From NCBI GenBank assembly GCA_964458135.1, contig CAYWHT010000001.1, positions 1 through 49,395 on the forward strand: a DNA stretch of 49,395 nucleotides, given 5' to 3'. The stretch comes from an uncultured Saprospiraceae bacterium (GTDB lineage Bacteria > Bacteroidota > Bacteroidia > Chitinophagales > Saprospiraceae). Numbering within the stretch: the first letter of the stretch is position 1; each line of letters starts with the position of its first letter. The position numbers were made by a program, and so were the translations under genes. Shown here piece after piece: positions 10,931 through 47,000 of this stretch. The notes under the pieces were generated by a model that made no database searches, was not told the DNA's origin, and worked only from the letters and a program-made list of their open reading frames with translations.

Positions 10931-10942
10931 ACCTCGTTCCTC

Positions 10943-11515: not shown

Positions 11516-11529
11516 TGTTCGTGTTCTCC

Positions 11530-12183: not shown

Positions 12184-12194
12184 AAATTCCTCCT

Positions 12195-16260: not shown

Positions 16261-16270
16261 AATCCCCCTG

Positions 16271-17942: not shown

Positions 17943-17991
17943 ACAAAAATAAGCTTGCAACAGATTACAATTGAAACGTGCAAAAACAAGT

Positions 17992-18462: not shown

Positions 18463-18514
18463 GGTCTGTCCCTCTTTAATTCTACACCTACAATTCAAGC
18501 ATAAATTAGTTACA

Positions 18515-20222: not shown

Positions 20223-20561
20223 ATGCAAACCGACTCAAAAGATCGAAGGGATACCATTATCCAGATACGCGCCACTCAAGATGAAAAGGCTGCCCTCGAT
20301 CGCGCCACACTGGAAGCTGGCTATCAAACTGTAAGCGAGTTTGTGCGGCAGATGGCAATTAACAATATAGACCGCAGGGTAGATTTTAATTGGCGAGATT
20401 ATAGGCTATCTTTAAACGAAATCTTCAGAGAGTTAGTCGCCAATTTAGATGGTCTGCGGGTTGTTGCTGGAATTGAAACTCAGTCCGAAGATTGGGGCAG
20501 AATTCAGCGCTCCATCTCCAAGTTGAAATCTAAAGTTGAAGAACTTAATGCCGATCGCTAA
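20223..20561 (+). CDS. mobC: MobC-like ribbon-helix-helix relaxosome accessory protein
   Basis: DTIIQIRATQDEKAALDRATLEAGYQTVSEFVRQMAIN matches the MobC/RHH pattern. The gene overlaps the start of the relaxase gene. Confidence 0.7.
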   Translation: MQTDSKDRRDTIIQIRATQDEKAALDRATLEAGYQTVSEFVRQMAINNIDRRVDFNWRDYRLSLNEIFRELVANLDGLRVVAGIETQSEDWGRIQRSISKLKSKVEELNADR

Positions 20562-26200: not shown

Positions 26201-26465
26201 CAATCGCTTTTGGGATGCGCGATTCTATGCTGCGCCGATGATGCTGGCTAGCTTGGCAAACGGCGAGTCCGAGGTTGCCGCGCGCGATCGCGTTCTTGCA
26301 GGGTATCCCAGTACGGAAAAAGGTCGCTTGCGAGGGTTGCGCGATTTTACCGATCAATACGTGATGGCAATGCGAGGCAGTACTTCATTTTCGGAGGTGA
26401 TGCCTACTACTACAGGTTCGACGGTTCGAGAAGAACGCGAACGGCAAGTCGTCAATAATCGATAG
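23274..26465 (+). CDS. virB4: VirB4-family T4SS ATPase with N-terminal VirB3-like membrane segment
   Basis: N-terminal transmembrane helices are present (LIPWVFIGVFSYFIFSMLLGVGILPWLGTWIWIAASWWILTG). Walker A is ALITGKTGSGKSVLG and Walker B is SLFVGDELSVLLD. The protein is 1063 aa. Confidence 0.9.
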   Translation: MDVDKDPVKVNPILGQRASIGPIPADQLIPWVFIGVFSYFIFSMLLGVGILPWLGTWIWIAASWWILTGSKTYAFIKSWVQPPGVDWINAETLFVRATDAGTWRRAKQDKLRYVKQTSSEDGKTRKFMPFQNFSHIHSIAEIQLGGYSFACLVLYDKANDSWSAQIPFKFSGIHPQLYRNEVESAISALHEACSEFNEGEFLTFQTSCKSITRNRKKQLRELAKTSDSKAIGVQLLNEEQRVKELAASGARQVWEQIIWGSWTAQKDIEERTDLIGKILLWIKNKYQSSITGFMGTKQSYFNDFYEDLARQIHERGFLKWRNLLETKGELLCEPMSAREIWQHLWYRFNIQPAPTLPQNRYIQVIEEQGGLQTNVPQSGQKDLITLLVQGDRGKTSCPKHQSQRGFIYSCNKVGRVVTIEQPPELWRNAREQLKWIWNRLSTTYVRDTDAVIQISSREKWAIQDELEKMTKQSKYEERRAVAEGTGKGVAASMQGEHAEDALRKMLEGKQPLYCAPVFVIWRDSEEEANEAARQFCQAFGSATATVEDDIAWRVWVESLPINSFPLLEKYSAFSERRLTLDSETVPGFLPLTRPRDLDSRGVEFLNSRGGHPIYVNLLDPQTGRALITGKTGSGKSVLGWRFVLDALAQNIPVVGIDLSSGGDSTFKTAVLSLGEEKGAYVDILRESLNILEPPDLRTLAPEVQVQRLKRWKDVVRTVVATIAMAQIEDPQLHSRVDSICLRLLEVFFADVDITNRYNNAFEQGWKSEAWGEMPTLHDLLKFCSKEKLGLESYEEIDARAINQIVNQVGAKLQDPNIGDAIGRPSTVSPYPLITFYALSGLSNEQNATIMALSAQMAALRNALASSQSLFVGDELSVLLDKPGFADVVGEMLATGRKEGISTLMLAQDLDAIVNCKASAKILANLSTQITGKTTYAATAAYANALGYDRELIAQNASESYRGSKHELYTRWRVERNNRFWDARFYAAPMMLASLANGESEVAARDRVLAGYPSTEKGRLRGLRDFTDQYVMAMRGSTSFSEVMPTTTGSTVREERERQVVNNR

Positions 26466-28800: not shown

Positions 28801-29565
28801 ATGTTTTCATCTAAAAAGGATAACGATCCAAACAAAAACGGGTACCTAAACTCATCATCGTCTAATACCAAGGGCGATATGATTCAGGGCAACGAGAATA
28901 GAGTACTAATACTGCTTTTAATTTTGTCGGGCAGTTTGTTGATTAGCTTGCTTGCAATCGTGGTGCTTCTTTTTAATAATCGCGCTCTTGCAGAACGCGA
29001 AAACACCTACGTTCAAATGAACGATGGTTTTACTAAAGAAATCAGAGAATTTAATGTCAGCCATCGCGAAGCAAGCACGATTAAACAGACTGTAAGCACT
29101 TGGGTACAACTTACTTTTGAATGGGATAATCGAATTCCAGGATCGAGCGCTACTGATAAGGGATTTGAAATTAATGAAGAGACAATTCCCACGAAGTCGT
29201 ACCTGGCAAGTTACATTATGCAAGAAGGGTTTCGCCAACAGTTCTTGACACAGCTTGGGTCTGAAGTAGTTCCGCCTGATGTCTTTACGGGGCAGCGGCG
29301 CTCGACTGTAAGAATTTATGACATCTCCAATCCGCGCCAAGTGGGAGAGGGAACTTGGGAGATTGACGTTGTATCTTCTCGAATCGAAACTGTGGGCGGA
29401 CGCGAGGATCGAGAGGTTGAATTCAACCGCACTTTCACAGTTGAAGCCATCCCGCCAATCGAATCAGCATTAAAGGAGCAAGAGTCGAGCGCTTGGCGCA
29501 AACAGGTTTACGACCTGACCACAAACGGATTGATAATTACGCAGATTGAACCACTCGACGTATAG
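28801..29565 (+). CDS. VirB8-like bitopic protein
   Basis: It has a short cytoplasmic N-terminus and one transmembrane helix (VLILLLILSGSLLISLLAIVVLLF). A periplasmic domain of about 190 aa has alternating beta pattern (TWEIDVVSSRIETVGGREDREVEFNRTFTVEAI). The call is based on topology and position. Confidence 0.55.
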   Translation: MFSSKKDNDPNKNGYLNSSSSNTKGDMIQGNENRVLILLLILSGSLLISLLAIVVLLFNNRALAERENTYVQMNDGFTKEIREFNVSHREASTIKQTVSTWVQLTFEWDNRIPGSSATDKGFEINEETIPTKSYLASYIMQEGFRQQFLTQLGSEVVPPDVFTGQRRSTVRIYDISNPRQVGEGTWEIDVVSSRIETVGGREDREVEFNRTFTVEAIPPIESALKEQESSAWRKQVYDLTTNGLIITQIEPLDV

Positions 29566-29578
29566 GGAGATATTTTTA

Positions 29579-31609
29579 ATGGTTGAAGACAACAACTTAC
29601 AACAGTGCGAGGATATTCACGACAATGGAAATGGGGACAGCGAGGACGATGATTATACCTTAATCGTCTCTCCGGATTCCGATTTAGAGGAGCATAACGA
29701 GCAGCAAGAGCATGGCGAGGGCGAGGATAATCTTGCAAGCCTTGCTGGACTTGAACCCGACGAAGAGGATTTGCTAGTCGAGGAAGGGGCAAGGCTTGAC
29801 CTTGATAGTGACGAGGAGCAAGAAGGACGCGATCTGGCTTCTTCGCCCATCTCTCGAACAGCGGTAGTCGCTGGTGGGGTGGGATTACTCGTGTTTTTCG
29901 TAGTTGGGGCAATTTCTCTTTTTACTGGTAGCGGCGGCGAACAACAAATTGGCGAACGCAATCAGCGCCAGGAGGATACTGCTCAATCCGACTCCTACTC
30001 AAAAAGCGATCGTTACAAGTCCAAGCTGGCATTAGTCGGTCAGGAGAAAGGGCAACAAGAGGTTCAGCAGCAACCTCAAACCACTCCCGTTCGAGAGCAA
30101 CAACAACAAGGTGAAGGCGGTGGCGAACAGCGAACGCAGCAGCAGTCGCAGCAACAACAGGAGGAGCAGGGAGGACGACTGTATAATCCACCACCACAAC
30201 AGCCACAATCGCAACCGCAGCCACCATTGCCAAGCGGCGCAACTGAGCCAAATCCCGCCGAGCCACAAAGGGTCAGACAACGACCACCGCAACCGCAACG
30301 ACAACGACTGCAACCGCAACAACAAGAACAGGAGGAGCAGATCGATCCGCTTTCGCGCTGGAGCAAACTTGCATCGGCAGGTTCTCGTGGTGGGCAATTT
30401 TCGCGGGTGCAGCCAGTTGAAACGCTGGAACAACGACAGGGCAACGGGCGACAAGCGGCAAGCAACCAAGTGGCAGCGCAAATTCCTTCTCCCGAGTTGC
30501 AGAACGGGGGGCGCATCATGCAGGTTATGCCGGACGAACAACAAGATTCGCGCGCAAGTGCGTCCGCTCAAGGACGGCAAAGACAAAATCAACCGTCGCG
30601 GCGGCAGGTAGAAGGCTTCCCGGAAGCAACCATTGGCGACGATCCAGTTTATGACAATGAAAACCAGGAGCAACAAAACGATCGCCGTCAGGTGCAACCT
30701 CAACCGATGCAACCGATGAATGACAATTGGAATGACCGTTCCAGTTACCCGCACACACAAGACACACAAGGGCAACGGCAGCAGTCGCGGGACTTCAATG
30801 GGGGCAACAACGATCGAGTGCTAACGCCTTTACCGGCGACTAAGCAAGCTTCTCGCCAGCACCAGCGAACGCCTGGAGAGCAGGGCATTCTACAACGACA
30901 GCGGCAGCGCAGTAGCGAAGACAACGATCAACAGCAATCTCACCAACAAGCAGTAATGCGTGTGGCTATCGGGACGAGCGCTCGGGCAAAAGTATCGACT
31001 CCCATTGTCGCCAGCACCAGCGGCAAAACGGTGGGCAGATTTGCTGTAGAACTCACGCGCCCCCTGCAATCGACGGATGGCAAGGTGGCATTGCCCGCAG
31101 GGTCGATCTTGATTACCGACGTACTTGCCATCGACGACAATAGCCGCGCGATTCAACAAACTGTGGTTGCCGTGGTTTATCCCGATCGCGATGGGGAGAT
31201 TCGCCAGGAGATTATCGAGCGCAATACTCTCCTGGTGCGTGGAAGCGATGGGGGAGCGCTGATTGCCAGTCTCGAAGGGGGGGCGGCTGAAGCAGGGTCG
31301 ATCGAAGACGTGCGCGCTGGCGCAGTTGGGGCGCTCGAAAATGTCGGTGAGGTTGCCAATCAAGCCGATGTATTTTCTACTTCCAGTGCTTCGAGTGGGG
31401 GCGATGATTCCTCAACCGTAACGACTACCACGGTCGAACGCGACGATAACAGCTTGGCTGCTGCTGCATTAGAGGGATTTTTTGGGGAAGTGGGCGATCG
31501 CTTGGAGGAGCGATCGGAAGATCGTCTGCAATCTGCTCCGGTACTGGAGGTCGAGAGTGGCGAGGAAGTCGTGGTTTTCGTTAACGGATTTTTGGAGGTT
31601 CGCAGATGA
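29579..31609 (+). CDS. VirB10/TrbI-like protein with Gln/Pro-rich linker
   Basis: It has an acidic N-terminus, a transmembrane helix (AVVAGGVGLLVFFVVGAISLF) and a long Q/P-rich region. The C-terminal beta domain reads RVAIGTSARAKVSTPIVAS...GKVALPAGSILITDV...LLVRGSDGGALIA. The ATG at 29579 has a GGGAGA box upstream. Confidence 0.65.
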   Translation: MVEDNNLQQCEDIHDNGNGDSEDDDYTLIVSPDSDLEEHNEQQEHGEGEDNLASLAGLEPDEEDLLVEEGARLDLDSDEEQEGRDLASSPISRTAVVAGGVGLLVFFVVGAISLFTGSGGEQQIGERNQRQEDTAQSDSYSKSDRYKSKLALVGQEKGQQEVQQQPQTTPVREQQQQGEGGGEQRTQQQSQQQQEEQGGRLYNPPPQQPQSQPQPPLPSGATEPNPAEPQRVRQRPPQPQRQRLQPQQQEQEEQIDPLSRWSKLASAGSRGGQFSRVQPVETLEQRQGNGRQAASNQVAAQIPSPELQNGGRIMQVMPDEQQDSRASASAQGRQRQNQPSRRQVEGFPEATIGDDPVYDNENQEQQNDRRQVQPQPMQPMNDNWNDRSSYPHTQDTQGQRQQSRDFNGGNNDRVLTPLPATKQASRQHQRTPGEQGILQRQRQRSSEDNDQQQSHQQAVMRVAIGTSARAKVSTPIVASTSGKTVGRFAVELTRPLQSTDGKVALPAGSILITDVLAIDDNSRAIQQTVVAVVYPDRDGEIRQEIIERNTLLVRGSDGGALIASLEGGAAEAGSIEDVRAGAVGALENVGEVANQADVFSTSSASSGGDDSSTVTTTTVERDDNSLAAAALEGFFGEVGDRLEERSEDRLQSAPVLEVESGEEVVVFVNGFLEVRR

Positions 31610-32487
31610 GACGAGTTATTGCAGTTACCGCTGCCGTTGTCATTGGCGTTGCAGGTGTTGCAGCCCGCGCCGATGCCCAACAGCTTCCGCCGCCACCACC
31701 GGAGCCGGAGTCGGAGTTTCTGCCTGAAATCGAGCGGCAACAGCAAAGCGTCGCTTTTGTATCGCAGACTCGGGCGTATCGCTACACCACACCAGTACGA
31801 ATCTATCCAGGGCGCAATACCACGATTGAATTTCGCACGGATGAGGCGATTACCTTCGTCCAACTTAGCGATTTGAGCGAAATTGTCTACGAGACGAACG
31901 CGCCACTTCCATCGGGGCAAGCTAAGGTAATCGTTTTGCGGCAAATCCGCCCGCTCGATATCGAAGGGACAACCAATTCAGCAATTCCAAATCTTACGGT
32001 TTCGACCGTCGATCGCCAGGGCAACTTGCGAACCTACACCTTCAACCTCCTGGTACGCGATGGGGCTTTAGCAGCAGTTCCAGTCAATGACAAAACTAAT
32101 GGCGTGGCAATTGTACCCAACCAACAGGCTGAGGCGGAGCGACTGGCACTGCGGCGTAACGAACAGGGATTGCAATTTGTCAATACTCGCAGGCAACACC
32201 AGCACAATACCCTCGAAACTCAGATGGGAACTGCCACCTTGGGCGATATCAAGCTTGGCTTACAGGTTGCAATCGAGCGCGGCTATACGCCGAGCGACGA
32301 TCCAGTTGTCTACAACGTGCAACAAACCCTAGCGATTGCGCGAAATGGGACGCCCTTGCAACAAGCTATGCAGCAGACTCAGGTTGGACAAGAGGTGATG
32401 GTCGAACTGGGCGAAATCGGAATTGAGTCGGCAATTTTATCTGACAAGAAACCAAGTTACCAGCAGCAAGTCGAACAGGAGATTTAA
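31606..32487 (+). CDS. VirB9/TrbG-like protein
   Basis: The signal peptide reads MRRVIAVTAAVVIGVAGVAARADAQ. The VirB9-like pattern is RIYPGRNTTIEFRTDEAITFVQLSD...IPNLTVSTVDRQGNLRTYTFNLLV. The start overlaps the virB10-like stop (ATGA). Confidence 0.6.
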   Translation: MRRVIAVTAAVVIGVAGVAARADAQQLPPPPPEPESEFLPEIERQQQSVAFVSQTRAYRYTTPVRIYPGRNTTIEFRTDEAITFVQLSDLSEIVYETNAPLPSGQAKVIVLRQIRPLDIEGTTNSAIPNLTVSTVDRQGNLRTYTFNLLVRDGALAAVPVNDKTNGVAIVPNQQAEAERLALRRNEQGLQFVNTRRQHQHNTLETQMGTATLGDIKLGLQVAIERGYTPSDDPVVYNVQQTLAIARNGTPLQQAMQQTQVGQEVMVELGEIGIESAILSDKKPSYQQQVEQEI

Positions 32488-32699: not shown

Positions 32700-32708
32700 A
32701 ATTTCTTG

Positions 32709-33089
32709 ATGACATTTTTGGCAGCAAACATGGCTGATATTAAACAAAAACAGCAAGAGAAGCAAGCAATTCAAGTTGCAGATAGTGCAAATCGAATTTT
32801 GGACGTGGCAGAAAGAGAAGATTTAGATGTCAAAAATGATGATGGAAGCGTTTCAGTGGAAGGTGATACCTATAAGGTTTTTCGTAAAGACAATAAAATT
32901 ACAATTGACAAAAAAAATAAAGAAAGTCGCGTTGTTCAAGATTCTGGAAATATTGTTGAGAATAAAGGAGTAACTCAAAAAGATGCCGAAATTTTTGAAG
33001 AAATGGCAAATAAGATGGAGCAACACGAGCAGCACCAAATTAACCAAAGAAAAGCTCAACAGAGAAAATCTAAAGAACCCGAGCTTTAA
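32709..33089 (+). CDS. Small protein consisting of the shared C-terminal module (see findings)
   Basis: ...DSANRILDVAE...SVEGDTYKVFRKDNKITI...KGVTQKDAEIFEEMANKMEQHEQHQINQRKAQQRKSKEPEL aligns by eye with the C-termini of the relaxase, the giant protein and the 286-aa protein. Confidence 0.5.
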   Translation: MTFLAANMADIKQKQQEKQAIQVADSANRILDVAEREDLDVKNDDGSVSVEGDTYKVFRKDNKITIDKKNKESRVVQDSGNIVENKGVTQKDAEIFEEMANKMEQHEQHQINQRKAQQRKSKEPEL

Positions 33090-33094
33090 TACTG

Positions 33095-36000
33095 ATGCCC
33101 GAGCGCGATCGAACGAACAACTTAGCCAATCATTTTCGAGATCGGTTTCTAGCTGGCGATCGATTTCAATCAATTACCCAGGCAAGAAAATCGGTATCGG
33201 ATTATTTAGGACAACCGATTCAACCGGGGTCACGCCAAGCCAAACAACTTGACGAATCTGTCGAGCAAGGATTGGTTCGGGCGGCGAAGGCAATCATTCA
33301 AGCTGGGGAAGACTCGGGCGATAGTCCCGCAGCGACCTACGATCGCTTGGTGGACTTGTACCAACGGCAACCGAGACTCGGAACGCGCAGTTCGACCTCG
33401 ATCGAGCGCCAGCAGTACAGTACGCCAGTGCCAATTGCCTACCTTGCCTCTCGATTGGCGGGAGTAGATCGCGATTGCGATGTGTACGAACCCACTGCCG
33501 GACACGGAGCGCTTCTAGCTGAAGCCGACCCTCAACGCTCAACTGTCAACGAACTCGATGACGATCGCGCTGCCGATTTACATCGCCAGGGGTACGAAGT
33601 TACCCAACACGATGCGGTTAATTGGCGTCCGGGGAGGCAGGCTGATGTGGTAATTGCCAATCCTCCGTTCGGTTGCCGCCAGGGACAAAACGGCAGAGCC
33701 GAGCAGTTTGAAATTGGCGGCGATCTCACCAAAATTCGCACGATCCACCTCGACCATGCAATCGCGTGGAAATCTCTCGAAGCGATGAAGGACGATGGGC
33801 GTGCCACGCTAATTTTGGGGAGCGAACATGGGACGCAACAATCGCGCTCGGACAAATATAACCAGCAACAAAATAGAGGATTTTTCTACAACCTCTATAA
33901 GAACTACAACGTGACAAACCATTTCACTATTGATGGCGGTTTGTACGGGCGGCAGGGGGCAGGATTTCCAATTGACGTGATTCAGATCGACGGACGTGGC
34001 ACATCCCAGCGCGAGCTTCCCGCCGCTGACGTACCGAAGCTCTATACCAGTTACGACGAACTCAAGGAAACCTTGAATTATGGTGTTAGTCGAGAACGCA
34101 CAGCAAGTTCAGATCGAGATGCCAGACTATCCATATTTCCAGAATCCCAACGTTTGGAAGCCGATGGAAATGGCAGAGGGTGCGCGCCGGACGCCCCAGT
34201 TTTGGCAGATCCTCCTGCCGAGCAACCAAACTCAAATAGTAGACTACATGGACTATCGGAGTCTGGTAGCCGACAAGGTAGAGTGGCTGATCTACCACTA
34301 CAGTTGGCAGCTAGAGATTCCTCTGATCGAAGTATTCGACTATATCGCGACCAAAGCGAAGAAAATCGAAGGCGTTTCGATGACCCCAGAACGGATAACC
34401 AGCGCTCGGGGGTGGGCACAGATTCTGACCGAGAATTCGTGGTTGCGGGCAATGTGGCAGCTAGAGATTCCGATGGAGCAGCGCGAGCTTCCGCTACAAA
34501 TCCTCCAGGACGAGGAGGAGAAGGAGCGAGTCATCGAGGGGATTCAGGAAGGGATGAACCTCGAAGAATGGTTACTCGAAATTCTGGTCGAGTAAAAAAA
34601 CATCGAGAACCATCGCCATTTACCGAGTTTGAGGAATCATCTATGCCAGAAGACGACAATCGCAATAATCCAGAACAACAGCAGGTTCGCTATCAGCCAC
34701 AGAGCAAGCATTCTTCGCTGGATACGCTTATCCCGCGCAACTTGCAAGGATCGGCTAGAGAGAGTTTGGACAGCCTGGAAGAACGGGTAGGTGGCGACAT
34801 TGATGAATTCGTGCGCGATTGCGTGGGATTTGAATCGGAGGAAGATTCGAAAGATGCCCTAGCTGGCGAACAAGTCGATGGAACCGCGCTCGCGATCGAC
34901 CGAATTGAAAATGACCAGGGGGCACTAATTGGCGACCAAACGGGAGTTGGGAAAGGTCGCCAATTGGCATCAATTCTTAAATATGCCAAGGAAACCGACC
35001 GCACGCCCATTTTCGTGACGCAAAAACCATCCCTCTACGCTGATATGATTCGCGATTTAGAGGATGTTGGCGAAGCGGGATTTAACCCGTTCGTAACCGA
35101 TCGAGATACCAAGGTGCCGCTTCCGGACGGACGTGAAATCAATACCAAGCCAGGACAGAAAAAGCAGGAAATCGACGATATTCTCAAGTCGGGCGAACTT
35201 CCAGACGAATACGATGGGATATTTACCACGTACTCGCAAATGCAGACGGTAAGAGGGAAAGAACCGCCTCGCCGCGAACTACTGCGCCAGTTTGCACCAA
35301 ATTCCGTGATGGTGCTCGACGAAGCCCACGAAGCAGGTGGATCGCCCGATCGCCAATCGCTACCAGGGCAAGCCTCCAATCGTGCCGAATTTGCCAGGGA
35401 GCTAGTGGACGACGCCGAAGGGGTTGCATTTTCTAGCGCTACGGCAATCAAGCGCCCAGACGTGCTGGACTTGTACGGGCGGCGCACGGGAATGACCGAA
35501 GCACTTGGGGGCGTAAAAGACTTGCAAAATGTCTTGGAGGGGGGAATCCCCTTGCAACAAGCCTCCAGTGCCATGCTGACGCGGGATGGCAACTACACTC
35601 GGCGCGAACGCAGCTATGAAGGCGTCGATTTTGGCATCGAGCAGGTTGATGTATCGCGCGAATCAACCGATGGCATGGCAGAAATTATGGGGTCGATCCT
35701 CCAGTTCGATCGCGCCAAGCAAGATGCGGTTATTTCCATTGACGAGGAATTGAAAAAAGAAGCCAAATCGGTCAGCGAAGACAATGCAATCGGTAAATCT
35801 GGCGCGGATAGCACTAACTTTACAGCGCTGATGCACAATGTGATGGATCAGGCTCAAGTTGCGCGGAAATCCGACCAGATGGCAGATGAAGCAATTGCTT
35901 CGCTGGAGCGCGATGAGAAACCCGTGATTGCTGTCTCCAATACAATGGGCAGCTTTATCGAGCAGGTGGCAGAGCGCGATGACCTCCATCGAGGGGACGA

Positions 36001-39000
36001 GTTTACTGCCAACTTCTCGGATGTCATGAAGCGCTACTTATATCGCTCTCGCGAGGTACAGGAGAAGAATTTCCGAGGAGAGCGCGAACGGCGGATGCTG
36101 ACCGACGAGGAACTGGGAACTGAAGGGGTCGAGGCATTCGAGCGTGCCGAAAAACTCATTGACGATACGGATCTAGATTTCCCGGTTAGCCCGATCGATC
36201 GTGTCCGGCAACGAATTGAGGATGCGGGCTATAGTTTCGAGGAAATTACGGGTCGCCAGCACGCTCTCGATTACGACGAAGATGGCAACGCCACCTATCG
36301 CAAGCGCGGCTCGAAAGAGACTTCGCAGGCTGCAAAAATCCAGACAACCGACAACTTCAACAATGGCGATACGGATGCCCTATTGCTCAATCGCTCTGGG
36401 GCAACCGGAATTTCGCTGCACAGCGGCGAGAAATTTCAAGATCGCCGCCGCCGCCACATGATTGTCGGGCAAGCCGAGCGCGACGTGAACGCTTTTATAC
36501 AAACATTGGGGCGCGTCCACCGCACTGGGCAAGTCGAGCCGCCGAAAATTTCGATCGTGATGAGCGATGTCCCGGACGAGAAGCGTCCCGCCGCCATGCT
36601 CGAAAAGAAAATGGCAAGCCTCAACGCCAACACTACGGCAAGCAGAAGCTCGGGGTTCGATACCAGCGAAATTCCAGACTTTTTTAATGAATACGGATCT
36701 GCCGTGGTCGAAAACATGATGGAGGACTACCCGGATGTTAACGCCAAGCTGGATTATCCAGTGGGGTTGTCAGGGAGTGGCAACCGCGAACAAGCCAATG
36801 ACGAGGATGCGATCCGCAAAGTTACGGGTCGATTGCCGTTGTTGAGCGTAGATGAGCAGGGGCAATTTTATGAAGAGCTTGAAGAAGAATACAAGGCAAT
36901 GTCGGAGCGGCAGAAAGCCCTCGGCAACAATATCCTAGAGGCAGACTTTCGGGATCTCGACGTTCAACCTATTGCTCAAGCTAACATTATCGAGTCCGAT
37001 CCGAATTCAAGTTCGGCATTTGCGAATGGGGTTCGTGCGGAAATTGCCAATGTAAATGCACCATCTAAGCCAAAGACGCAGCTTGAAGTGACCAATGAAG
37101 TCCGACGAGGGCTAGGCTTGGATTCAATTAGCAACCTCGAAGACTACGAACCCGACAAGGTGCGCGGCTCGGCAGAATTCGAGCGAGATGAAACGCTTGA
37201 GAAAGTCGATCGCGCTACAGACGCTTACCGAAATCGCCAGCACCAAAAAATTCGAGATCGCTCCTCGCTCGAACCTAAAGATCCCAACGCAGATAATGCC
37301 GAGGAGGAGCGGCAGCGGCTCGCTGAAAAATTTCAGAGCCGCCTGGATGCTGAAGACAAAAAAATTGACAAACAGCGCAGCCATATCAAGGAAGAAGTTG
37401 AACAATTTCCGCGCGGACAAACTGTGCGATTGGCAGCAAAAGGGCGCGGCGAAGAAGGTCGAACTTTTTATGGAGCAATTACTGATATTCGCAAGCGCGG
37501 ACAGAGCCTTGACGACTCGATTACCGGAGCAGACAATAGCAATCAGTTGGGCGATAATCCTCTAGCGGCGAGTAAGTGGGAAATGCTCGTTTCGATCGCC
37601 GATAGTGCCAGAGAAATGGCGATTCCAGTAAGCAAGCTAAATACGGGGCGAATCGGCTCGATTACTATGAACCCTGCTGAGGAGTCAGCGGCAGGAGAAA
37701 ATATCATGCAGATGTTCGACGATCGCCAGTCTGAAAGCAGCCGAGAGGTTCGGCAGGTGTTGCGCGGTAATATGCTGAAAGCCGCCCATCAGTACGGCAA
37801 TCAAGGTGACATGATCAACGCCACGACTCGCGATGGTGGAGTCGAGCCGATTATGTTGATGGATCGCAATTTTGACCTGAATAAAGAACAGGAAAAATCG
37901 AATGTGCTATTGCCGCACGATCGCAATATTAATCAATTTTTTGAGCTAACCGAAGACAAAGGAAAGGTTCAAACCGAAGATGGACGATTAACTCTTACAA
38001 AGCACGGAGAAAAATACCAACTCGAAACCAGCCGTGGGGCAAGCGATTATTATCTCAATCGAGATCTAACGGATGCTATTGGGGATGATTTTTATTCTAA
38101 AGGCAGTGACCGCATGGTGGCAAATTTTAATTGGGACAGGTTCGATAATGTCCTGGGCGAAATTAAGTATGTGATGGGGCATAGTAAAACTATGCAAGCT
38201 GCTTCCCATAAAGATACTGCCAGGGAGTTGGTTGGGGAACAGACTTTAAAATTTGATTGGCACGAATCGATCGACAAACAGGCTGTTAAAAGTTTAGGAT
38301 TTCCAGAACATCCGAAACTTGAAGATTTTAAGGGCAAGGAAGTACGGAATAAGCTGAACGCCTTGTTGCCGGATAAATTGTATGAAGAAGGAAAAACAGA
38401 GGATAACATGGCACTTAAGCAAAACGACAATGGCGAAACCGACAAAATCAATTTAGAAAATTCAAACTCAAGCAAAGAGCAGCAAGACGAACAAGATAAA
38501 CAGCAATTATCGGATAAATTCTCATCTTTTTCACGCGATATCGAAACGGAAATGTGGAATAACGAGGATGGAGATTCTATTGGTATAAAACTCCAGAGCG
38601 AGGGAGTTACAAGCGATGATTTCGACAGCTATATTTTCGAGAAAACGCTTGAATACTTTGACGATAGCTATACTGCAGAACCAGACCCAGACACGGATCG
38701 AGATGCAGTTCAAGCAGTTGAAGAGGCTAGTAAAAAAGCGGGTGTTAGCAATCAACTAGATGCGGTGATTAGTAGAGTTAGAGGAAATTATACTAAGCAG
38801 CAACAGGAGCTTGACAGTAGTATAAGCTTGGAGCAGGCTAAACGATCTTCTTCTCAAATCACTCAGGACATAGAAGAACGACGGCAAGAAGCTGAGAAAG
38901 AAGAGCAGCAGAAACTTGAAGACCAAGGTAGGTTGTATGAAGGCAAGAAACCTTCAGAGCGTGAGGATGCTGATTTTTTAAAAGAACACCTGCACGGTGC

Positions 39001-40114
39001 ATTTAAGGAAAAGTATGAATTAGATGACGAAGCAGCGACTGAACGAGTTAATGATTTATTTGGAACTTGGGAAAATGAAGGGTATAATGCAATCTACGAT
39101 AAGTATTTAGAGGATTTATCAGAAGATTGGAATAAACAGGTAAAGGATCTAGTAGCCGAAGCATCGCATGAAGATTCTCAAGAAGCTCACCGAACTGTTT
39201 ATAGTGAAATTGAAAAACGCGAAATCCAAAATTCTCATGAGGAGATGGGCGAGGCGGCAAAGCGAGTGAGCGGAATGCTTGATGAATTCAGCGGCGATCG
39301 CACTCAGATAAAAGGCGAACACGACTATCGCGATACCATCACTTTTCTGCGCTCAGATGCTCGCGATCGATTGAGCGAGGAGGAACGACAAACAGTCAAC
39401 GAAAGCTTCGATCGTGCTGAGGAGGTGATGCAATCGTACCAAAAATTAGGAAAAAGTATCGATTCTATGGAAGAGTTGCTGGACTCATACGAAGCCGATG
39501 CACCCGAGCGAGTAATTACCGAGGCGATCGAAGACGAAGATGAAGAACTCGATGCCATGCTTGTCTCGGCGGAGGAGGAAGAATCGCAAGTTCCCAGCGT
39601 CGATACCTTCCGCGATTGGTATCAGTCGGCGCGAAAGCTGGCGCGATCGGACGAAGAACTCGGCAAAATCGAGCAGTATGGAAAAGCAGCGAAAGCTGGC
39701 GAACTCGATAGCTTTGAAGAATCGGAAGAAATGGAAGAAACGATCGCGACGGCACAGCAACAGAGCCGAATCGGGGAAAACGTGGTATCAAATGCCCGGA
39801 GCTTTATCAGTGCGGCGAAAGATGCTGGGATTGTCAAAGAGAAAAATGGCGAGACTTCCCTAGAAGGCAAGCACTACCAGGTCACCCAGTGCAACGATCG
39901 AGTTGAGGTATCGGGCAAAGAGTCTGGGGCGAAAGTGATTAGCGATCTCGATCGCGAGGGGAACGAAAATATCCGAGAAGCGCACGACCTCTCGGACAAA
40001 GACAGCAAGCGCTGGGATAGTTTGGGAAATCGCAGTGCTGAAGATTTACAAACTCGCAAGCAGAAGCAACGCCAATCCAAGCAGCAGAAACAATCTGCTG
40101 AAGTCGAACGATAG
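33095..40114 (+). CDS. Giant (2339 aa) N6-adenine-type DNA methyltransferase fused to an SNF2/strawberry-notch-like helicase, with a long acidic coiled-coil tail
   Basis: The methyltransferase motif I-like box is DVYEPTAGHGALL and motif IV is VVIANPPFG (NPPF at 33659-33670). Helicase motif I is GDQTGVGKGRQ (about 34931-34963), the DEAH box is VMVLDEAHEAGG, and motif VI is QTLGRVHRTGQ. The last 600 aa or so are Glu/Asp/Lys/Gln-rich. Confidence 0.9.
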   Translation: MPERDRTNNLANHFRDRFLAGDRFQSITQARKSVSDYLGQPIQPGSRQAKQLDESVEQGLVRAAKAIIQAGEDSGDSPAATYDRLVDLYQRQPRLGTRSSTSIERQQYSTPVPIAYLASRLAGVDRDCDVYEPTAGHGALLAEADPQRSTVNELDDDRAADLHRQGYEVTQHDAVNWRPGRQADVVIANPPFGCRQGQNGRAEQFEIGGDLTKIRTIHLDHAIAWKSLEAMKDDGRATLILGSEHGTQQSRSDKYNQQQNRGFFYNLYKNYNVTNHFTIDGGLYGRQGAGFPIDVIQIDGRGTSQRELPAADVPKLYTSYDELKETLNYGVSRERTASSDRDARLSIFPESQRLEADGNGRGCAPDAPVLADPPAEQPNSNSRLHGLSESGSRQGRVADLPLQLAARDSSDRSIRLYRDQSEENRRRFDDPRTDNQRSGVGTDSDREFVVAGNVAARDSDGAARASATNPPGRGGEGASHRGDSGRDEPRRMVTRNSGRVKKHREPSPFTEFEESSMPEDDNRNNPEQQQVRYQPQSKHSSLDTLIPRNLQGSARESLDSLEERVGGDIDEFVRDCVGFESEEDSKDALAGEQVDGTALAIDRIENDQGALIGDQTGVGKGRQLASILKYAKETDRTPIFVTQKPSLYADMIRDLEDVGEAGFNPFVTDRDTKVPLPDGREINTKPGQKKQEIDDILKSGELPDEYDGIFTTYSQMQTVRGKEPPRRELLRQFAPNSVMVLDEAHEAGGSPDRQSLPGQASNRAEFARELVDDAEGVAFSSATAIKRPDVLDLYGRRTGMTEALGGVKDLQNVLEGGIPLQQASSAMLTRDGNYTRRERSYEGVDFGIEQVDVSRESTDGMAEIMGSILQFDRAKQDAVISIDEELKKEAKSVSEDNAIGKSGADSTNFTALMHNVMDQAQVARKSDQMADEAIASLERDEKPVIAVSNTMGSFIEQVAERDDLHRGDEFTANFSDVMKRYLYRSREVQEKNFRGERERRMLTDEELGTEGVEAFERAEKLIDDTDLDFPVSPIDRVRQRIEDAGYSFEEITGRQHALDYDEDGNATYRKRGSKETSQAAKIQTTDNFNNGDTDALLLNRSGATGISLHSGEKFQDRRRRHMIVGQAERDVNAFIQTLGRVHRTGQVEPPKISIVMSDVPDEKRPAAMLEKKMASLNANTTASRSSGFDTSEIPDFFNEYGSAVVENMMEDYPDVNAKLDYPVGLSGSGNREQANDEDAIRKVTGRLPLLSVDEQGQFYEELEEEYKAMSERQKALGNNILEADFRDLDVQPIAQANIIESDPNSSSAFANGVRAEIANVNAPSKPKTQLEVTNEVRRGLGLDSISNLEDYEPDKVRGSAEFERDETLEKVDRATDAYRNRQHQKIRDRSSLEPKDPNADNAEEERQRLAEKFQSRLDAEDKKIDKQRSHIKEEVEQFPRGQTVRLAAKGRGEEGRTFYGAITDIRKRGQSLDDSITGADNSNQLGDNPLAASKWEMLVSIADSAREMAIPVSKLNTGRIGSITMNPAEESAAGENIMQMFDDRQSESSREVRQVLRGNMLKAAHQYGNQGDMINATTRDGGVEPIMLMDRNFDLNKEQEKSNVLLPHDRNINQFFELTEDKGKVQTEDGRLTLTKHGEKYQLETSRGASDYYLNRDLTDAIGDDFYSKGSDRMVANFNWDRFDNVLGEIKYVMGHSKTMQAASHKDTARELVGEQTLKFDWHESIDKQAVKSLGFPEHPKLEDFKGKEVRNKLNALLPDKLYEEGKTEDNMALKQNDNGETDKINLENSNSSKEQQDEQDKQQLSDKFSSFSRDIETEMWNNEDGDSIGIKLQSEGVTSDDFDSYIFEKTLEYFDDSYTAEPDPDTDRDAVQAVEEASKKAGVSNQLDAVISRVRGNYTKQQQELDSSISLEQAKRSSSQITQDIEERRQEAEKEEQQKLEDQGRLYEGKKPSEREDADFLKEHLHGAFKEKYELDDEAATERVNDLFGTWENEGYNAIYDKYLEDLSEDWNKQVKDLVAEASHEDSQEAHRTVYSEIEKREIQNSHEEMGEAAKRVSGMLDEFSGDRTQIKGEHDYRDTITFLRSDARDRLSEEERQTVNESFDRAEEVMQSYQKLGKSIDSMEELLDSYEADAPERVITEAIEDEDEELDAMLVSAEEEESQVPSVDTFRDWYQSARKLARSDEELGKIEQYGKAAKAGELDSFEESEEMEETIATAQQQSRIGENVVSNARSFISAAKDAGIVKEKNGETSLEGKHYQVTQCNDRVEVSGKESGAKVISDLDREGNENIREAHDLSDKDSKRWDSLGNRSAEDLQTRKQKQRQSKQQKQSAEVER

Positions 40115-40123
40115 GAGTAATAC

Positions 40124-41959
40124 ATGAGCCGCCGCATCGAACCCAATCGGGCAATCCTACTCGCCAGAACCCAACAAAATGAGGAAATTCCTTACTGGGC
40201 AGAACCGATCGCCGATGCCTGGAGTACCATTTCCGGAATCCTATTCTCCGGACAGGGGATGGCGCTAATCGGAATCTTGCTTGTTCTCGGGGCAATGCGA
40301 GTATTCTCGGGCGGACAGACCCAAGGACTCGCCGCCGGAAAATGGGCAGGTCGCACGGAGCGCTTAAATGCCTGGAAGCGCACGAAAAAGAAGCTGAGGG
40401 GTGAGGACGTTGACGACGTGGCTTTGTGGTGCGGCGGCTCGGTTAAACAGGGCTTTTTCGGCAAGTTATTAACCTTTGTTACGGGTGACTTACCTACCAC
40501 GGTGGTTCCCGACGCCAATCGCTCGACAATCGTATCGGGGAAGCCGGGAAGTGGGAAAACCTTCTCAGCGATCGATCCAATGCTTAAATCGGCGATCGAG
40601 CAAGGGTTGCCCATCGTCCTCTACGACTATAAAGCAGACGAGCAGGGAGCTGGCGGACAGACTGATTTTGCAGCTACTTTAGCCGCGCGTCATGGATACA
40701 AATTGAATATTTTCGCACCAGGGCGGGACTACACCTGTACAATTAATCCTCTCGATTTTATGGAATCTCCGAGCGACGATATCACAGCCAAAACTTTGGC
40801 TGAGGTATTTCAGAAAAATATGAAAGGCGATAATTCAGGTGGTGACGCATTCTTCGGGGCTGCCGGACAGCAGTTAATCCAAGCCTTACTTCAGTTTGCT
40901 AAATCAACAAGGTATCCCGATATTCCAATGGCATTCGCGACGGTGCGGTTGCAGCAATTACCCGAGCGATTAATTCATGCTGAGAAAGAAGGCAATCTCC
41001 CCGTCTCTGTTAAAATTGCCTTCTCGCAGCTCATGTCTACAACGGGCGCTGAAAAAACTGTCTCGGGAATTGTCAGCACCGCTCAAGATATATTAACTCG
41101 ATTTATTTCGCCAAGGATTTTACCTGCAATTACTAAGGATACTAATATTTCAATCCAAATTAGTGGGAAAGAAATAATTGTATTTCAAAGTGATATTTTT
41201 CGTCAAGAAGTTGTAAATCCTCTGCTAGCAGCAATTATTAACGTTGTCATCGATCGTAATTTTAGTTATCAGCGCGAAACACCACTGATTTTTAGCGCTG
41301 ATGAATTCCCTACAATTTATTTACCACAAGCACCCAGATGGGTAAACGAACACCGCTCGAAAGGATTTTGCGGTATCTTTGGATTTCAGTCATTCCCGCA
41401 GATTCGAGATACTTACGGCAAAGAACAATCCGCCGTGATGCTGGCAGGTACAGGATCGCATTTCTGGTTTAACCCTGGCGACCAAAATACTGCCAAAGAC
41501 CAATCTTCATTTTTGGGAGAGGAAGAAATTATAATCGAAAATAAGTCGAAAACCCACCAGCGTGGGGAGGGGCGTGGTAGTATCAGTAAAAGTCAGCAAA
41601 CCCAAACTAAACCGCTGATAACCGCTTACGAGATTAATCAATTTAAGGTAGGGGAGTGCATTTATCTAAACCCCGGTTTCTCTGATGGCGACCGCGAGAG
41701 TATTCCCCAGCATTTAAAGCGCATTGAGATTCCAGAGGAAGATATTTCGCTACATAAAGAATGTGAAAAAATGTGGCTTAATACCGTTCGAGATCGATTA
41801 ATTCAACGAGAGCAGGGACGCCGACCAAATATGAACTTTGAGCAGCAATTGCAAGCTCGGTTCGAGGAGGCAGAACGGTTACTGCCTTTGCCTCCAGATG
41901 AAGAAGATGAAGAACAAAAAGATGATGTAAATGTTACCAATGTAATTCCAGATTTATAA
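40124..41959 (+). CDS. virD4: VirD4/TraG-family type IV coupling protein
   Basis: An N-terminal transmembrane helix is present (GMALIGILLVLGAM). Walker A is IVSGKPGSGKTFSAIDP and Walker B is PLIFSADEFPTIY. A TAGGAG box precedes the ATG. Confidence 0.9.
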   Translation: MSRRIEPNRAILLARTQQNEEIPYWAEPIADAWSTISGILFSGQGMALIGILLVLGAMRVFSGGQTQGLAAGKWAGRTERLNAWKRTKKKLRGEDVDDVALWCGGSVKQGFFGKLLTFVTGDLPTTVVPDANRSTIVSGKPGSGKTFSAIDPMLKSAIEQGLPIVLYDYKADEQGAGGQTDFAATLAARHGYKLNIFAPGRDYTCTINPLDFMESPSDDITAKTLAEVFQKNMKGDNSGGDAFFGAAGQQLIQALLQFAKSTRYPDIPMAFATVRLQQLPERLIHAEKEGNLPVSVKIAFSQLMSTTGAEKTVSGIVSTAQDILTRFISPRILPAITKDTNISIQISGKEIIVFQSDIFRQEVVNPLLAAIINVVIDRNFSYQRETPLIFSADEFPTIYLPQAPRWVNEHRSKGFCGIFGFQSFPQIRDTYGKEQSAVMLAGTGSHFWFNPGDQNTAKDQSSFLGEEEIIIENKSKTHQRGEGRGSISKSQQTQTKPLITAYEINQFKVGECIYLNPGFSDGDRESIPQHLKRIEIPEEDISLHKECEKMWLNTVRDRLIQREQGRRPNMNFEQQLQARFEEAERLLPLPPDEEDEEQKDDVNVTNVIPDL

Positions 41960-42388: not shown

Positions 42389-43249
42389 ATGGGATCGAGT
42401 GACTATGCCGAACGCGAAGATAGTAAGATTGCACGCCACGAACAGCGCTATGCCGAAGCTGGAGTAACCGGGGCGATCGCATCGCGCGCCGCCGAATTAA
42501 AAGCACAGCAGCAGGATGGTGGGGAAGAACTCGACGAAGTTGCCGTACAGATTGTCGATTTTGCCGATCGCAATCAAGCACAACACGAGGAATTACAAAC
42601 TCTGAGTCAGTACGGGGCAGATCTCGAACAGCATGGATTTGAGGCGATCGCTGACAACTATAGCAATCGGATTCCCGATCTCAAAGATAACCTGGGGCAG
42701 CATCGCGCTAGAGCTGCCAACGGCGAAGAGGTTGATTGGGTTGCCGACCGACAACGCGATTTAATGGGCGACCTACAGCGGCAAGGTTCCCTGGAACGAC
42801 AAGTCGAACAAGGCAATCGCGACTTGGGCGAGGTTATTAGCAACTCTGACACTGACGACACGGGAACAGGTACAGAGGAACAGGAAGAATCACCTTTCCA
42901 AAAACAAGTCGATAATTTCGCCATCATAGAAAATGCTAGGCGATTGCACCAGGCGGCTCAGAATACGCCATTGGTGAAGAAGGCTGGCAATAATATTTCC
43001 GTCCTGGAGGGCGATCGGTACTCGGTGGTACAGTCCGACGAGACTACAATCGTGCAAGGTCGCGATCGCGGCGGACGAGCGATTGCTAATGGCGACCATC
43101 TGCTTGATGCGGATGGATTCACGAAAGATGACGAGCGCTGTTGGGAGGAGCTAGGGCAGATTACAGCCGAGCAGCTACAGCAAAGCAATCGACAAATTCA
43201 AGAACGAGAAATTCTGCGGAGGGAGAATTCTGATGAGATTGAGATGTAA
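42389..43249 (+). CDS. Hypothetical protein (286 aa) carrying the shared C-terminal module
   Basis: The C-terminal 110 aa read ENARRLHQAAQN...VLEGDRYSVVQSDETTIV...DGFTKDDERCWEELGQITAEQLQQSNRQIQEREILRRE. They align by eye with the C-termini of the giant protein and the relaxase. Confidence 0.6.
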   Translation: MGSSDYAEREDSKIARHEQRYAEAGVTGAIASRAAELKAQQQDGGEELDEVAVQIVDFADRNQAQHEELQTLSQYGADLEQHGFEAIADNYSNRIPDLKDNLGQHRARAANGEEVDWVADRQRDLMGDLQRQGSLERQVEQGNRDLGEVISNSDTDDTGTGTEEQEESPFQKQVDNFAIIENARRLHQAAQNTPLVKKAGNNISVLEGDRYSVVQSDETTIVQGRDRGGRAIANGDHLLDADGFTKDDERCWEELGQITAEQLQQSNRQIQEREILRRENSDEIEM

Positions 43250-44003: not shown

Positions 44004-47000
44004 TTACGGCATAGCGGCATGGGGAATCAAAAATCCCCGTGGGGCAAGTTCCAATATTCGGGCTTGGAGATCGTAGCCAAGTCGTGCGAGCGATTCGCGC
44101 ACAATCTCAATTGGAATCAAGCACCGCAATTCTTGCAGCGTTTTAGTTGGATCGGGCGTGTCGAGCGATTCCCTAAACCACTCACCCACGTCTTCGATCC
44201 CGGCTTTCCACGGGGCAAGTTCTCGGGCGCGATCGGCTTTTTGTACTTCCTGTTTGATTAGTGCTTCGCGATCTCGCTCAAGCCAACGCTCGAAAACTTC
44301 CCAGCGTCGATCGTCAGGTCGTTTGTATCGATAGATTCGGATACGCTTCTTCTTGGGTTTGAGCTTCTGAATGCGTTTGAGTTGAAATGGAGGAGGTGGT
44401 TGTGGCAATGTCACCTCCTTGATATCGAGAACTTGTTTGCGCGAACCTTCCAGCCGAATCCCCAATGAAGCGAGAATTTGCTGCTGAATCCCCTGGATAG
44501 GTTTATCTAGCCATACCTTCTCGGTGGGATAGAAGTTGAGGAAATCCCTACAGCCACAGGGATCGCCCAGGACAATATCTGACATGCGACGAACTTCCGG
44601 GGAGTCGTTGTGGAGTTCCCGCCCATCAAGCAGGTCGGGGATGCCCATTTTTTTAAGAAGCTCGATTTTGGCTTGATAGAAGCGCAGGTCGGACAAGCAG
44701 AGTTCGCCCTCGCCCCCGTCGAGCTTGGCTTGTACGTGGGCGCGATCGCGTTCGGCGACAATAGCAGATTCAGCAACCATGAGGAGATAGTGCAGTTTGA
44801 TTTGGCTGTACCAGCCATCTTCATCATTGTGATTGAGTTGCTCGTTCACCTCAATGCCACCATATTTTTCTCGGAGTATATATTTTCGCTTCTGCCAGCG
44901 CTCCTCCTCAGTTTGGCTGGATTTTTCTTCTAGGAGCGAGAAGGTTTCCCAATCGATATCAGCAGCGGCGGCGACGGCACGGTCGTCCTCCGCTCGGGCT
45001 TCATCGCGAATGGCGCGGACACGATCGCATAGCTGCTTGATTTGGCTGCGCTCGGCTTCAATTTCATCTTTGAGTGTTGATAGCTCCTCCGAAATTTCGG
45101 TCAGCCACGCACGATCGCCCATTTGAGAGGCGATAAGTTTGTCGGCGTTGAGCCGAGCGATATCTGGTTGATGTTTATTAGATATTGGCTGAATGACTCG
45201 AACATCATGTCCTTCATTTTCTAATCCAGCCAGCACGGATTCGCGAAATCGAATTAATCCGGCATTGATTTGTGCGCCGTATTGCGCCCATGCCCGAAGA
45301 TTTTTCGGATCGTAAGCGCCATCGATATCAAAGTCGAGGTCGCGAAGCATCTCGATATTTTTGCGTGCCACTCTATCTGTAGAGCGAATCAACTGGCGAT
45401 AGTCGAGCGCTCCGTTGCCGATCTTGGAAACACCACGCTTAGCACACCAGACATGGCGATCGCAGGGATCTCGGAATCGCGCAAGGTGCTGGCGGGATTC
45501 GGATTCGCTATTAACGCCTTGGAAAATTCCAAAAATTGCTCGAAAGCGATCGCGTACATCAATCGATACTCCCGTCCCGATTGAGGGAGAGGCGATCGTG
45601 ATGGGGAATAGGGGAATTAGGTCGTTGAGCTTTTCAATTGCCCCGTATGCCGGATGGTCGGGGTCGCTGATAGATTCACTGTCTAGGCGCAAGCTTGGAA
45701 ATTTCTCGTCAGGGTATTTTTCGTTGATATAGCCTCGAATCGTTTTTTCAAGATTCTTGGTTCCCCAGGTAGATTTTGTTTTCTGCCCGTCACATACGAT
45801 CCCAATCGCGCCTCGGGAAATGGGGCGATCTGCGATTGGGCAGCACGCAGTGCGGGAGGCAAGATCGGAAGCCGCCCCATGGCGATCGCACTGCCGCTCG
45901 AAGACAATTTCGTCGATCGCGCGAAAGATTTGCTCTAGAACAATTCCAGGATTCGTATAATCGTAAAAATAGCATTTTGAGAGATCGGCTGGATTTTGCC
46001 AGTCGTTCACGAGAATCCACGGCTTCAAAGGGAGTTCGAGCTGGTCGTTCGCGAAATCGATATCGCGATCGCTCAGATCCGCCGACTGCACGATAATCGA
46101 TCCGCCAGAAGTCGCCACAACTTGCAGCAAGCGGCGGAAATTCCGCATTACGACTACTCGCTTCTCTTCGCCCTTTTGCCGCTTAGCGAGAGTTCCAGAA
46201 TTGAGCAAATGCCAGAAGACCTGATCGGCTTCATCGATAATCACGATTGCACCTTTCCAGTCTTCAGGATTAAATTGGGCGCGAGAATTCCGATGGCACG
46301 AATCCACACACAGCCCAATCCACCAAGTTCCTGTAGCGTCTTGCTCTTCCACGTAGCTAATTCCGAGGGCAGCGCAGATGGCTCGCACGAGCTGAATTCT
46401 GTGTCCGATCACGATTGTCTTTCGCCCAGAAGCGATCGCTCTGGCGATCGGCAGCGATAGAGCGCTGGTTTTCCCCGTTCCTTTTGGGCTTTTGACGGCG
46501 ATCAAGCCGCCGTCCGGATATTCGACATTCCCGAGATAGCGTTGGTTGAGCTTCAGGTCGGCATCCCGGAAGAGCTTGAAGCAAGTGAGTCGAGCTTGGA
46601 CGACCGCTCGATATTGACTCAGAGAGACAGCCGAGTCAAACAAAGTTTCGATTTCGGCAGCGGCGGAATCGCCACGCGCTACAATCCAATCGTCAATGCC
46701 TTTCTCTTCTCCAGGCAAATTGACGACGTCAACTGAATTTTCTGAATGTTGTGCGATGGCTTCGCCTAACTTCTCGGTCGCTTTCGCGATCGCGGCAGCT
46801 TTGCGAACCACTGGTTCGTAATCAAATACAATTACCCAGCGGCGACAAGATGCCACTAGCGGGGCTAAATCTGGATGAAGGCGATGCTTTGCACCTGCCT
46901 CTTCTTCACATTTGCGCGTCCCCATCCAAATGCCGGGAATCGCGATGGCGCAAAATCCGAGAGACAGGATAGCAGCGGCTTTTTTTTCGCCTTCGGTGAT

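Follow-up and report, generated by a model that had tools for sequence, protein, structure and literature searches.

A giant methylase–Strawberry-notch helicase protein encoded among type IV secretion genes of a putative cyanobacterial conjugative plasmid, and its candidate C-terminal recruitment module

Introduction

It is known that phages and conjugative elements encode large multidomain 'polyvalent proteins' (Iyer, Burroughs, Anand, de Souza and Aravind 2017, PMC5512222), among which the 'DNA methylase-helicase dyad' combines an LPD36 domain, made of four helices with a GxGU motif, an EcoKI/TaqI-like adenine methylase with TP and NPP(Y/F) motifs, and an ATPase of the SWI2/SNF2 clade. In this study, a DNA stretch of 49,395 nucleotides (nt), hereafter the window (contig CAYWHT010000001.1 of assembly GCA_964458135.1, deposited under an uncultured Saprospiraceae bacterium), was investigated. 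The subject is its longest open reading frame (ORF) by a wide margin, which encodes a protein of 2339 amino acids (aa), hereafter the giant protein, beside genes of a type IV secretion system (T4SS). The same survey places DarB of phage P1 as the archetype of the dyad, mentions Strawberry-notch-like variants, and proposes that the motor enables the methylase to modify injected DNA; methylation by DarB is only inferred there, and DarB is grouped with proteins that bind transferred DNA (PMC5512222). On its sequence, the giant protein fits this published dyad, and its architecture is already covered by the polyvalent-protein literature. No description of the roughly 480-aa region behind the helicase, of the C-terminal motif or of the C-terminal module of this clade was found in the literature, and the module with its tail, a candidate cyanobacterial T4SS recruitment signal, is the part that most deserves testing.

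The giant protein resembles the dyad in having an N-terminal region, an adenine methylase with TP and NPPF motifs, an ATPase of the SWI2/SNF2 clade and variable extra domains, and also in its surroundings, as the gene lies beside T4SS genes in a mobile element (relaxase, VirB4/9/10-like proteins, VirD4 and CyRepA1). The cyanobacterial clade differs in adding the conserved 480-aa post-helicase region, the C-terminal motif and the module. P1 DarB is a protein of 2255 aa which is carried in the virion and serves in defence against restriction. The giant protein is similar to it in size, in the N-terminal adenine methylase with the same motif order, in the central SF2 helicase and in the proposed delivery together with DNA; the helicase, however, belongs to another SF2 family, and DarB is delivered by capsid packaging and not by a T4SS. 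A first-pass annotation of the window, made from the sequence alone, had stated that the architecture recalls DarB, and this holds, as such proteins are filed with DarB as the dyad (PMC5512222). A specific kinship is not sustained: orthology to DarB was rejected, as the best BLASTP match (E 0.049) spans no more than some 100 aa of methylase motifs, the two helicases come from different families, and P1 was not among the phage matches of tblastn.

For the C-terminal part, the closest described systems are the substrate signals of other T4SSs. They are the BID domain with a positively charged tail, reported for effectors and relaxases of Bartonella (PMC6509941), the XVIPCD, which is found on T4SS effectors of Xanthomonas and is read by VirD4 (PMC8740702), and the TSA/TSB signals of TraI (PMC3912908). 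The module resembles them in being a folded C-terminal domain of about 100 aa followed by a charged tail, present on relaxases and unrelated proteins of one T4SS. It differs from them in that neither its sequence nor its fold matched any solved signal domain, and its signal role is putative.

Domain organisation of the giant protein

The giant ORF and its domains are arranged along the forward strand as follows.

33095..40114, forward strand: giant ORF with ATG start, 2339 aa; polyvalent methylase-SBNO helicase protein
33095..33379, forward strand: aa 1-95, N-terminal region in front of the methylase, conserved in the alignments
33380..34084, forward strand: aa 96-330, predicted gamma-class N6-adenine DNA methyltransferase (Pfam, PDB profile, invariant motifs), with the methylase motifs YSTP (aa 108-111), EPTAGHGALL (aa 132-141) and NPPF (aa 189-192, nt 33659-33670)
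34085..34774, forward strand: aa 331-560, R/S/D/G-rich linker, not conserved in homologues
34775..36946, forward strand: aa 561-1284, Strawberry-notch-type SF2 ATPase (Pfam, invariant motif residues)
34943-34963, forward strand: Walker A motif GVGKGRQ (aa 617-623)
35318-35329, forward strand: DEAH motif (aa 742-745)
36509-36532, forward strand: motif VI GRVHRTGQ (aa 1139-1146)
36947..38389, forward strand: aa 1285-1765, family-specific conserved region of about 480 aa, with a long helical hairpin and several small beta-rich domains
38390..39544, forward strand: aa 1766-2150, variable acidic stretch
39590..39739, forward strand: aa 2166-2215, region of the conserved RDWYxxARxLxRS motif
39767..40111, forward strand: aa 2225-2339, C-terminal module followed by a K/R/Q-rich tail ending ...SAEVER; candidate T4SS/VirD4 recruitment signal

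The ORF is real, and all the motifs quoted in the first-pass annotation (EPTAGHGALL, NPPF, GVGKGRQ, DEAH and GRVHRTGQ) are present in it. The fusion of a gamma-class methylase with an SBNO/SNF2-type ATPase, which that annotation had proposed, is likewise borne out by Pfam, by profile comparison and by the invariance of the motifs. Pfam AAA_34 was detected at aa 607-858 (E 1.8e-18, 67.0 bits against a cut-off of 27) and Helicase_C_4 at aa 1050-1278 (E 1.6e-27, 97.3 bits against a cut-off of 30.5), these two being the pair that defines the Strawberry-notch (SBNO) ATPases, whereas N6_Mtase stayed marginally below its cut-off (E 4.4e-4, 20.1 bits against 20.4). The whole giant protein had no match in the PDB by sequence. 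Among PDB proteins, a profile of the N-terminal 340 aa built from 33 sequences lies nearest to the type I HsdM enzymes (EcoR124II M with E 5.9e-6, followed by those of StySJI and EcoKI). As these nearest solved relatives are N6-adenine methylases, N6-adenine is favoured over N4-cytosine as the target base, and the N4-cytosine alternative entertained earlier is not supported.

The S-adenosylmethionine (SAM)-binding and NPPF residues, the Walker A motif, the DE-H residues and motif VI are invariant in an alignment of 30 homologues, and YSTP, EPTAGHG (aa 132-138) and NPPF are also invariant among 33 aligned N-terminal regions; because the catalytic residues are conserved in this manner, both the methylase and the ATPase look active. 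Neither a target-recognition domain or element nor a sequence specificity could be inferred for the giant protein, and the connection to HIP1, GATC and CGATCG put forward in the first-pass annotation is not supported. The N-terminal 95 aa occupy the position expected for LPD36 or HsdM-N, with no clear GxGU motif visible in them. Though the type I restriction-modification (R-M) HsdM enzymes are the closest solved relatives of the methylase domain, the giant protein is unlike the type I systems in that its methylase is fused to a different motor and has no HsdS or HsdR partner in the window, as no Methylase_S or HsdR-type match was given by Pfam among the large ORFs. Similarly, the motor shares with the SBNO family the two Pfam domains and an intact Walker A, DEAH and motif VI, whereas eukaryotic SBNO proteins are linked to transcription and lack a methylase, and the motor described here is fused to a methylase and borne on a plasmid.

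The region behind the helicase, which had been described as an acidic, coiled-coil tail of about 600 aa, is acidic in one part (aa 1766-2224, 27% D+E, pI about 4.3) but is not a single tail, as it consists of a conserved folded region, the acidic stretch and the module. The folded region (aa 1285-1765) has a confident AlphaFold model (pLDDT 84.7), with no match in the PDB by sequence or by fold. The acidic stretch is variable in its aa 1766-2150 portion, and at the equivalent position the homologues place DUF6908, MutS_I, Toprim/DUF3991 or Prim-Pol domains; DUF6908, frequent among homologues, is undetectable by Pfam in the giant protein. Within the window, the RDWYxxARxLxRS motif was found in the giant protein only, and elsewhere mostly in proteins of the giant family or apparent fragments of them.

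The C-terminal module and the K/R/Q-rich tails

The first-pass annotation had also mentioned a shared C-terminal module, and this is substantiated by matches of aa 2230-2338 to the C-termini of two other ORFs of the window, 42389..43249 (E 1e-7) and 32706..33089 (E 1e-3). The module is about 90 aa long, and its predicted structure (pLDDT 92) displays a helix, six beta strands and two helices, which marks it as a real domain. By Foldseek, nothing was matched in the PDB at E <= 0.001 (best 0.18, TM <= 0.35); no significant fold match was obtained in a viral structure library, and the module-only proteins had no Pfam match. Weak Tudor/Spindlin-like matches (E about 0.05) in the fold searches made with the module or with aa 1285-1765 were discarded as noise.

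In related loci, iterated searches showed that the module ends the giant protein and one or two more proteins per locus. The commonest partner is a protein of 430-670 aa encoded just upstream of the giant gene, and one partner is a Prim-Pol primase. Many partners, among them those encoded upstream of the giant gene (520-630 aa; loci L010, L023, L030, L047 and L075) and the proteins P0106 and P0192, harbor at least two module copies, internal and C-terminal, and the remainder of such multi-copy partners had no Pfam match. Word-indexed searches were too insensitive (7 matches for the module profile, 4 for the relaxase), and an exhaustive profile search of a representative library of 1.84 billion proteins was used for the module. 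The module was thereby found in 304 clusters (50% identity) with proteins of 88-2707 aa. In 140 of the 147 proteins re-scanned, no more than 30 aa separate the module from the C-terminus, and 40 have more than one copy. The domains joined to it include DUF6908, SBNO helicase, MutS_I, Toprim/DUF3991 and Prim-Pol, and three relaxase families also bear it, namely a TrwC relaxase with a TraI-type helicase, MobA_MobL and VirD2-like relaxases.

Behind the module, the final 30 aa contain 30% K/R/Q against 20% elsewhere, and the tail often ends in a [G/D/E/S]-hydrophobic-Glu-hydrophobic pattern (ΦEΦ), as in GMELG, SGLEL, DEIEM and KEPEL, with AEVER in the giant protein. This terminal pattern was recorded in 19 of 53 module-bearing ORFs as against 10 of 3410 other ORFs of the same loci. 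The relaxase of the window has no module; its tail, ...QKQRQRSKQHSKNMEL, is nevertheless of the module-protein type. This C-terminus (about 22528-22617) is K/R/Q-rich and terminates in ...NMEL; tails of this kind are borne by the three module-bearing proteins of the window and are conserved in homologous and in distant cyanobacterial relaxases. Two homologous relaxases end ...SKQRSKNMEL and ...QRSKQRELEL. Among four distant MOBP relaxases from plasmids of Nostocales, two have the endings ...KKQPSLEL and ...RRRGLSR, respectively; another bears the module (E 7e-11) together with the ending ...NRGIEY, and in the last one both module and tail are absent. A basic or ΦEΦ-like tail is therefore present in the window relaxase and in five of the six other cyanobacterial relaxases examined, while the structural T4SS proteins taken as a control (VirB4, VirB9, VirB10 and M23) lack such tails. 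A 'YGEL' near the end of topoisomerase III resembled the tail motif; it is internal in the homologues and was not accepted as a signal.

The VirD4 proteins, on the other side, end strongly acidic (...EEDEEQKDDVNVTNVIPDL in the window and ...ITEDEFDEAFR elsewhere, the homologues being those of L007-L076), and these acidic tails could be partners for the basic ones on the presumed substrates. The proteins classically transferred by conjugative T4SSs are relaxases and conjugative primases. Because relaxases and primases share both the module and the tail, we infer, by analogy with BID and XVIPCD and not by homology, that module and tail recruit their bearers to VirD4.

Conserved linkage to transfer genes

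The genes around the giant gene are listed below.

20536..22620, forward strand: MobA/VirD2-like relaxase (Pfam Relaxase, 2.5e-24)
23274..26465, forward strand: VirB4-like ATPase, from gene order and weak Pfam matches only
29546..31609, forward strand: TrbI/VirB10-like protein, below the Pfam cut-off
31606..32487, forward strand: VirB9/CagX-like T4SS core component (Pfam CagX at E 2.9e-4, which is under the gathering cut-off; related loci share the gene order)
32706..33089, forward strand: 127-aa protein, nearly all one module copy, ending ...SKEPEL
40124..41959, forward strand: VirD4-type coupling protein (Pfam TrwB_AAD_bind 2.6e-23, T4SS-DNA_transf 2.5e-16) with an acidic C-terminal tail
42389..43249, forward strand: 286-aa protein in which aa 175-286 form the module; its end is ...SDEIEM
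44004..47534, reverse strand: 1176-aa replication protein with DUF3854 and CyRepA1-family domains (NCBIfam, E 4.6e-100)

From 20536 to 43249, every gene lies on the forward strand with gaps of few bases; the giant gene starts 6 nt past the stop of the 127-aa ORF, and virD4 starts 10 nt past the stop of the giant gene. The T4SS operon context reported earlier is thus corroborated by the VirB9/CagX-like, VirD4 and other T4SS genes around the giant gene. The placement between virB9 and virD4 is also correct, except that two small ORFs separate virB9 from the giant gene. Judged by its genes, the window is a cyanobacterial conjugative plasmid, and it is marked as a plasmid because the replication protein of the CyRepA1 family is present. 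No terminal overlap was found between the ends of the window, and circular closure is therefore putative. A plasmid megablast with 24 kb of the window returned no near-identical record. The motif HIP1 (GCGATCGC) occurs 38 times in the window, with less than one copy expected.

More than 600 homologues of the giant protein were found, for the most part from cyanobacteria and usually under the name 'strawberry notch C-terminal domain-containing protein', the closest (50-52% identity) coming from Nodosilineaceae, including Almyronema and Sphaerothrix. Relatives are present on 562 plasmid records from many phyla, 227 of them predicted to be conjugative and 112 mobilizable (together 339), and by tblastn only 3 phage records have a relative. 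The related genomic loci, 78 in number, were retrieved by an alignment-based search, a single-protein query having returned none. About 30 cyanobacterial ones have relatives of virD4, M23, virB9, virB10 or virB4 within 10 kb. Their genes generally run virB10-virB9-M23-virD4-(one gene)-giant; on this comparison of sequences, the tie of the giant gene to the transfer machine is conserved, although the gene order is permuted in the window.

In the loci of the closest relatives (L004-L006), the giant gene is immediately preceded by counterparts of some genes that lie at 8972-19693 in the window, namely ParA, DUF6753, the AAA ATPase, the M23 peptidase and one of the small ORFs. More distant relatives, with 34-43% identity across about 1700 aa, were also seen in bins assigned to other groups, namely L007 (a metagenome-assembled genome labelled Cyclobacteriaceae), L033 (Burkholderiales), L035 (Xanthobacteraceae) and L037 (Desulfobacteraceae). 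The L007 contig contains HIP1 21 times and, because of this, is probably a mis-binned cyanobacterial contig.

Restriction-site avoidance

The window contains no GGCC site, with about 186 expected, and one GGWCC site, with about 94 expected. Thirteen 6-bp palindromes are missing altogether and others, including CTCGAG and CAGCTG, are present once, while CGATCG is 11-fold over-represented. In related elements the avoidance of GGCC varies, with 0-2 sites in L001, L030 and L034 and normal counts in L002 and L004, and it therefore follows the restriction systems of the host. As an adenine methylase is unable to protect GGCC, the methylase and the avoidance of sites would complement each other.

Proposed role and alternative explanations

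By analogy with the systems described above, we give an even chance to the reading that the giant protein serves a cyanobacterial conjugative plasmid as a polyvalent 'escort', which is exported to the recipient and there, aided by its motor, methylates the plasmid that has just become double-stranded. The giant protein would be made in the donor alongside the transfer machine, its module and basic tail would dock it on VirD4, whose own tail is acidic, and it would enter the recipient together with the DNA strand bound by the relaxase, or beside it. After synthesis of the complementary strand, the ATPase would track the duplex while the methylase quickly marks adenines along the incoming plasmid, and the ATPase may additionally displace restriction complexes; as the outcome, the unprotected plasmid would survive the restriction systems of the recipient. 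Just short of an even chance is the related proposal that module and tail form an undescribed, VirD4-read substrate signal of cyanobacterial conjugation (probably of the MPF_C class), which defines the whole set of shipped proteins. If true, this set of proteins sent into recipients would comprise, besides the giant methylase-helicase, the primases and relaxases, proteins with MutS_I or DUF6908, and many small proteins without assigned function, those of 127 and 286 aa among them.

The first-pass annotation, whose observation is confirmed and whose interpretation is partly supported, had put the giant protein forward as a candidate for an injected protective protein, and the delivery part of this idea is strengthened by the module and tail common to relaxases and primases. 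Several points nevertheless weigh against the escort reading. Transfer, VirD4 binding and methylation by the giant protein are all inferred from sequence. SNF2-type motors work on duplex DNA and conjugation delivers single strands, so that the giant protein could act only once the second strand had been made. With its 260 kDa and its stably folded domains, it is also a demanding substrate for a T4SS. The module is also borne, often internally, by cell-wall hydrolases with SLT, M23 or PG_binding_1 domains (P0200, P0205, P0223 and P0180), which need docking at the machine and not export, and it may therefore mean 'recruit to the T4SS' and not 'translocate'. A few relatives had no T4SS genes in the 10-15 kb of flanking sequence examined. 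Finally, the element, from which GGCC and many 6-bp palindromes are purged, is not reliant on the methylase alone.

Some of these points bear directly on the best-surviving alternative, which we hold to be rather unlikely. It states that the giant protein acts on the donor side, where the module docks it at the relaxosome or VirD4, the plasmid is methylated or remodelled before or during export, and the protein stays behind; the exported strand would then be already marked, and the duplex in the recipient hemimethylated. The position of the giant gene in the string of T4SS genes and not in the leading region agrees with this, as do the hydrolases that carry the module and need docking only, and the duplex DNA that SNF2 motors would require, on the established SWI2/SNF2 mechanism (PMC5512222), exists in the donor. 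However, the same module and tail are present on relaxases and primases, which are transferred proteins in other systems, and the basic tail at the extreme C-terminus resembles the usual T4SS translocation signals, as reported for BID with its positive tail (PMC6509941).

An anti-restriction role without methylation is less probable still. Here the motor and the acidic stretch would clear the incoming DNA of restriction complexes, or of other proteins that bind DNA, or act as a decoy for them, and the methylase would mainly bind DNA. The composition of aa 1766-2224 is acidic like that of DNA-mimic anti-restriction proteins such as ArdA (PMC2731889), and the placement of DarB among the binders of transferred DNA, with its methylation only inferred (PMC5512222), points in the same direction. 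Against this, the invariance of the SAM-binding and NPPF motifs in 30-33 homologues argues for an active enzyme, and no part of the protein is less conserved than the acidic stretch, in whose place relatives have other domains. Least probable of all, and very doubtful, is a plasmid-borne defence or exclusion device of the DISARM or BREX kind, marking self DNA and acting on competing phages or plasmids, for although pairs of methylase and SNF2-type helicase are known in defence and in type I and III R-M systems (PMC5512222), membership in DISARM, BREX or other defence systems was rejected as PADLOC gave only a weak generic MTase_II match (E 6.5e-4), no nuclease, HsdR/HsdS or other effector partner was found by Pfam among the large ORFs of the window, and the conserved linkage is to T4SS genes.

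Little is known of conjugation in cyanobacteria, and the chief obstacle to bringing DNA into them lies in their dense restriction systems. If the giant protein is an exported anti-restriction enzyme, this would explain how such plasmids cross restriction barriers, and the protein could serve as a helper for the genetics of hard-to-transform cyanobacteria. If the module is a tag recognised by VirD4, it would offer a direct handle to list and test the transferred proteins of a whole class of T4SS.

Other features of the window

Scans for promoters and terminators gave results no better than chance. Upstream of the transfer genes, one further group of genes was recorded.

8972-19693, reverse strand: topoisomerase III, two small ORFs, M23 peptidase, AAA ATPase, DUF6753 protein, ParA and two ORFs without assigned function

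Two ORFs in this part (12195-14681 and 14545-16356) overlap by 137 nt as listed. Farther upstream, within 5493-7503, a protein with a PAPS-reductase-like domain (6520-7503, forward strand) lies beside an unannotated ORF of 320 aa, and the two could represent a DNA-modification or sulfur-transfer gene pair on the plasmid.

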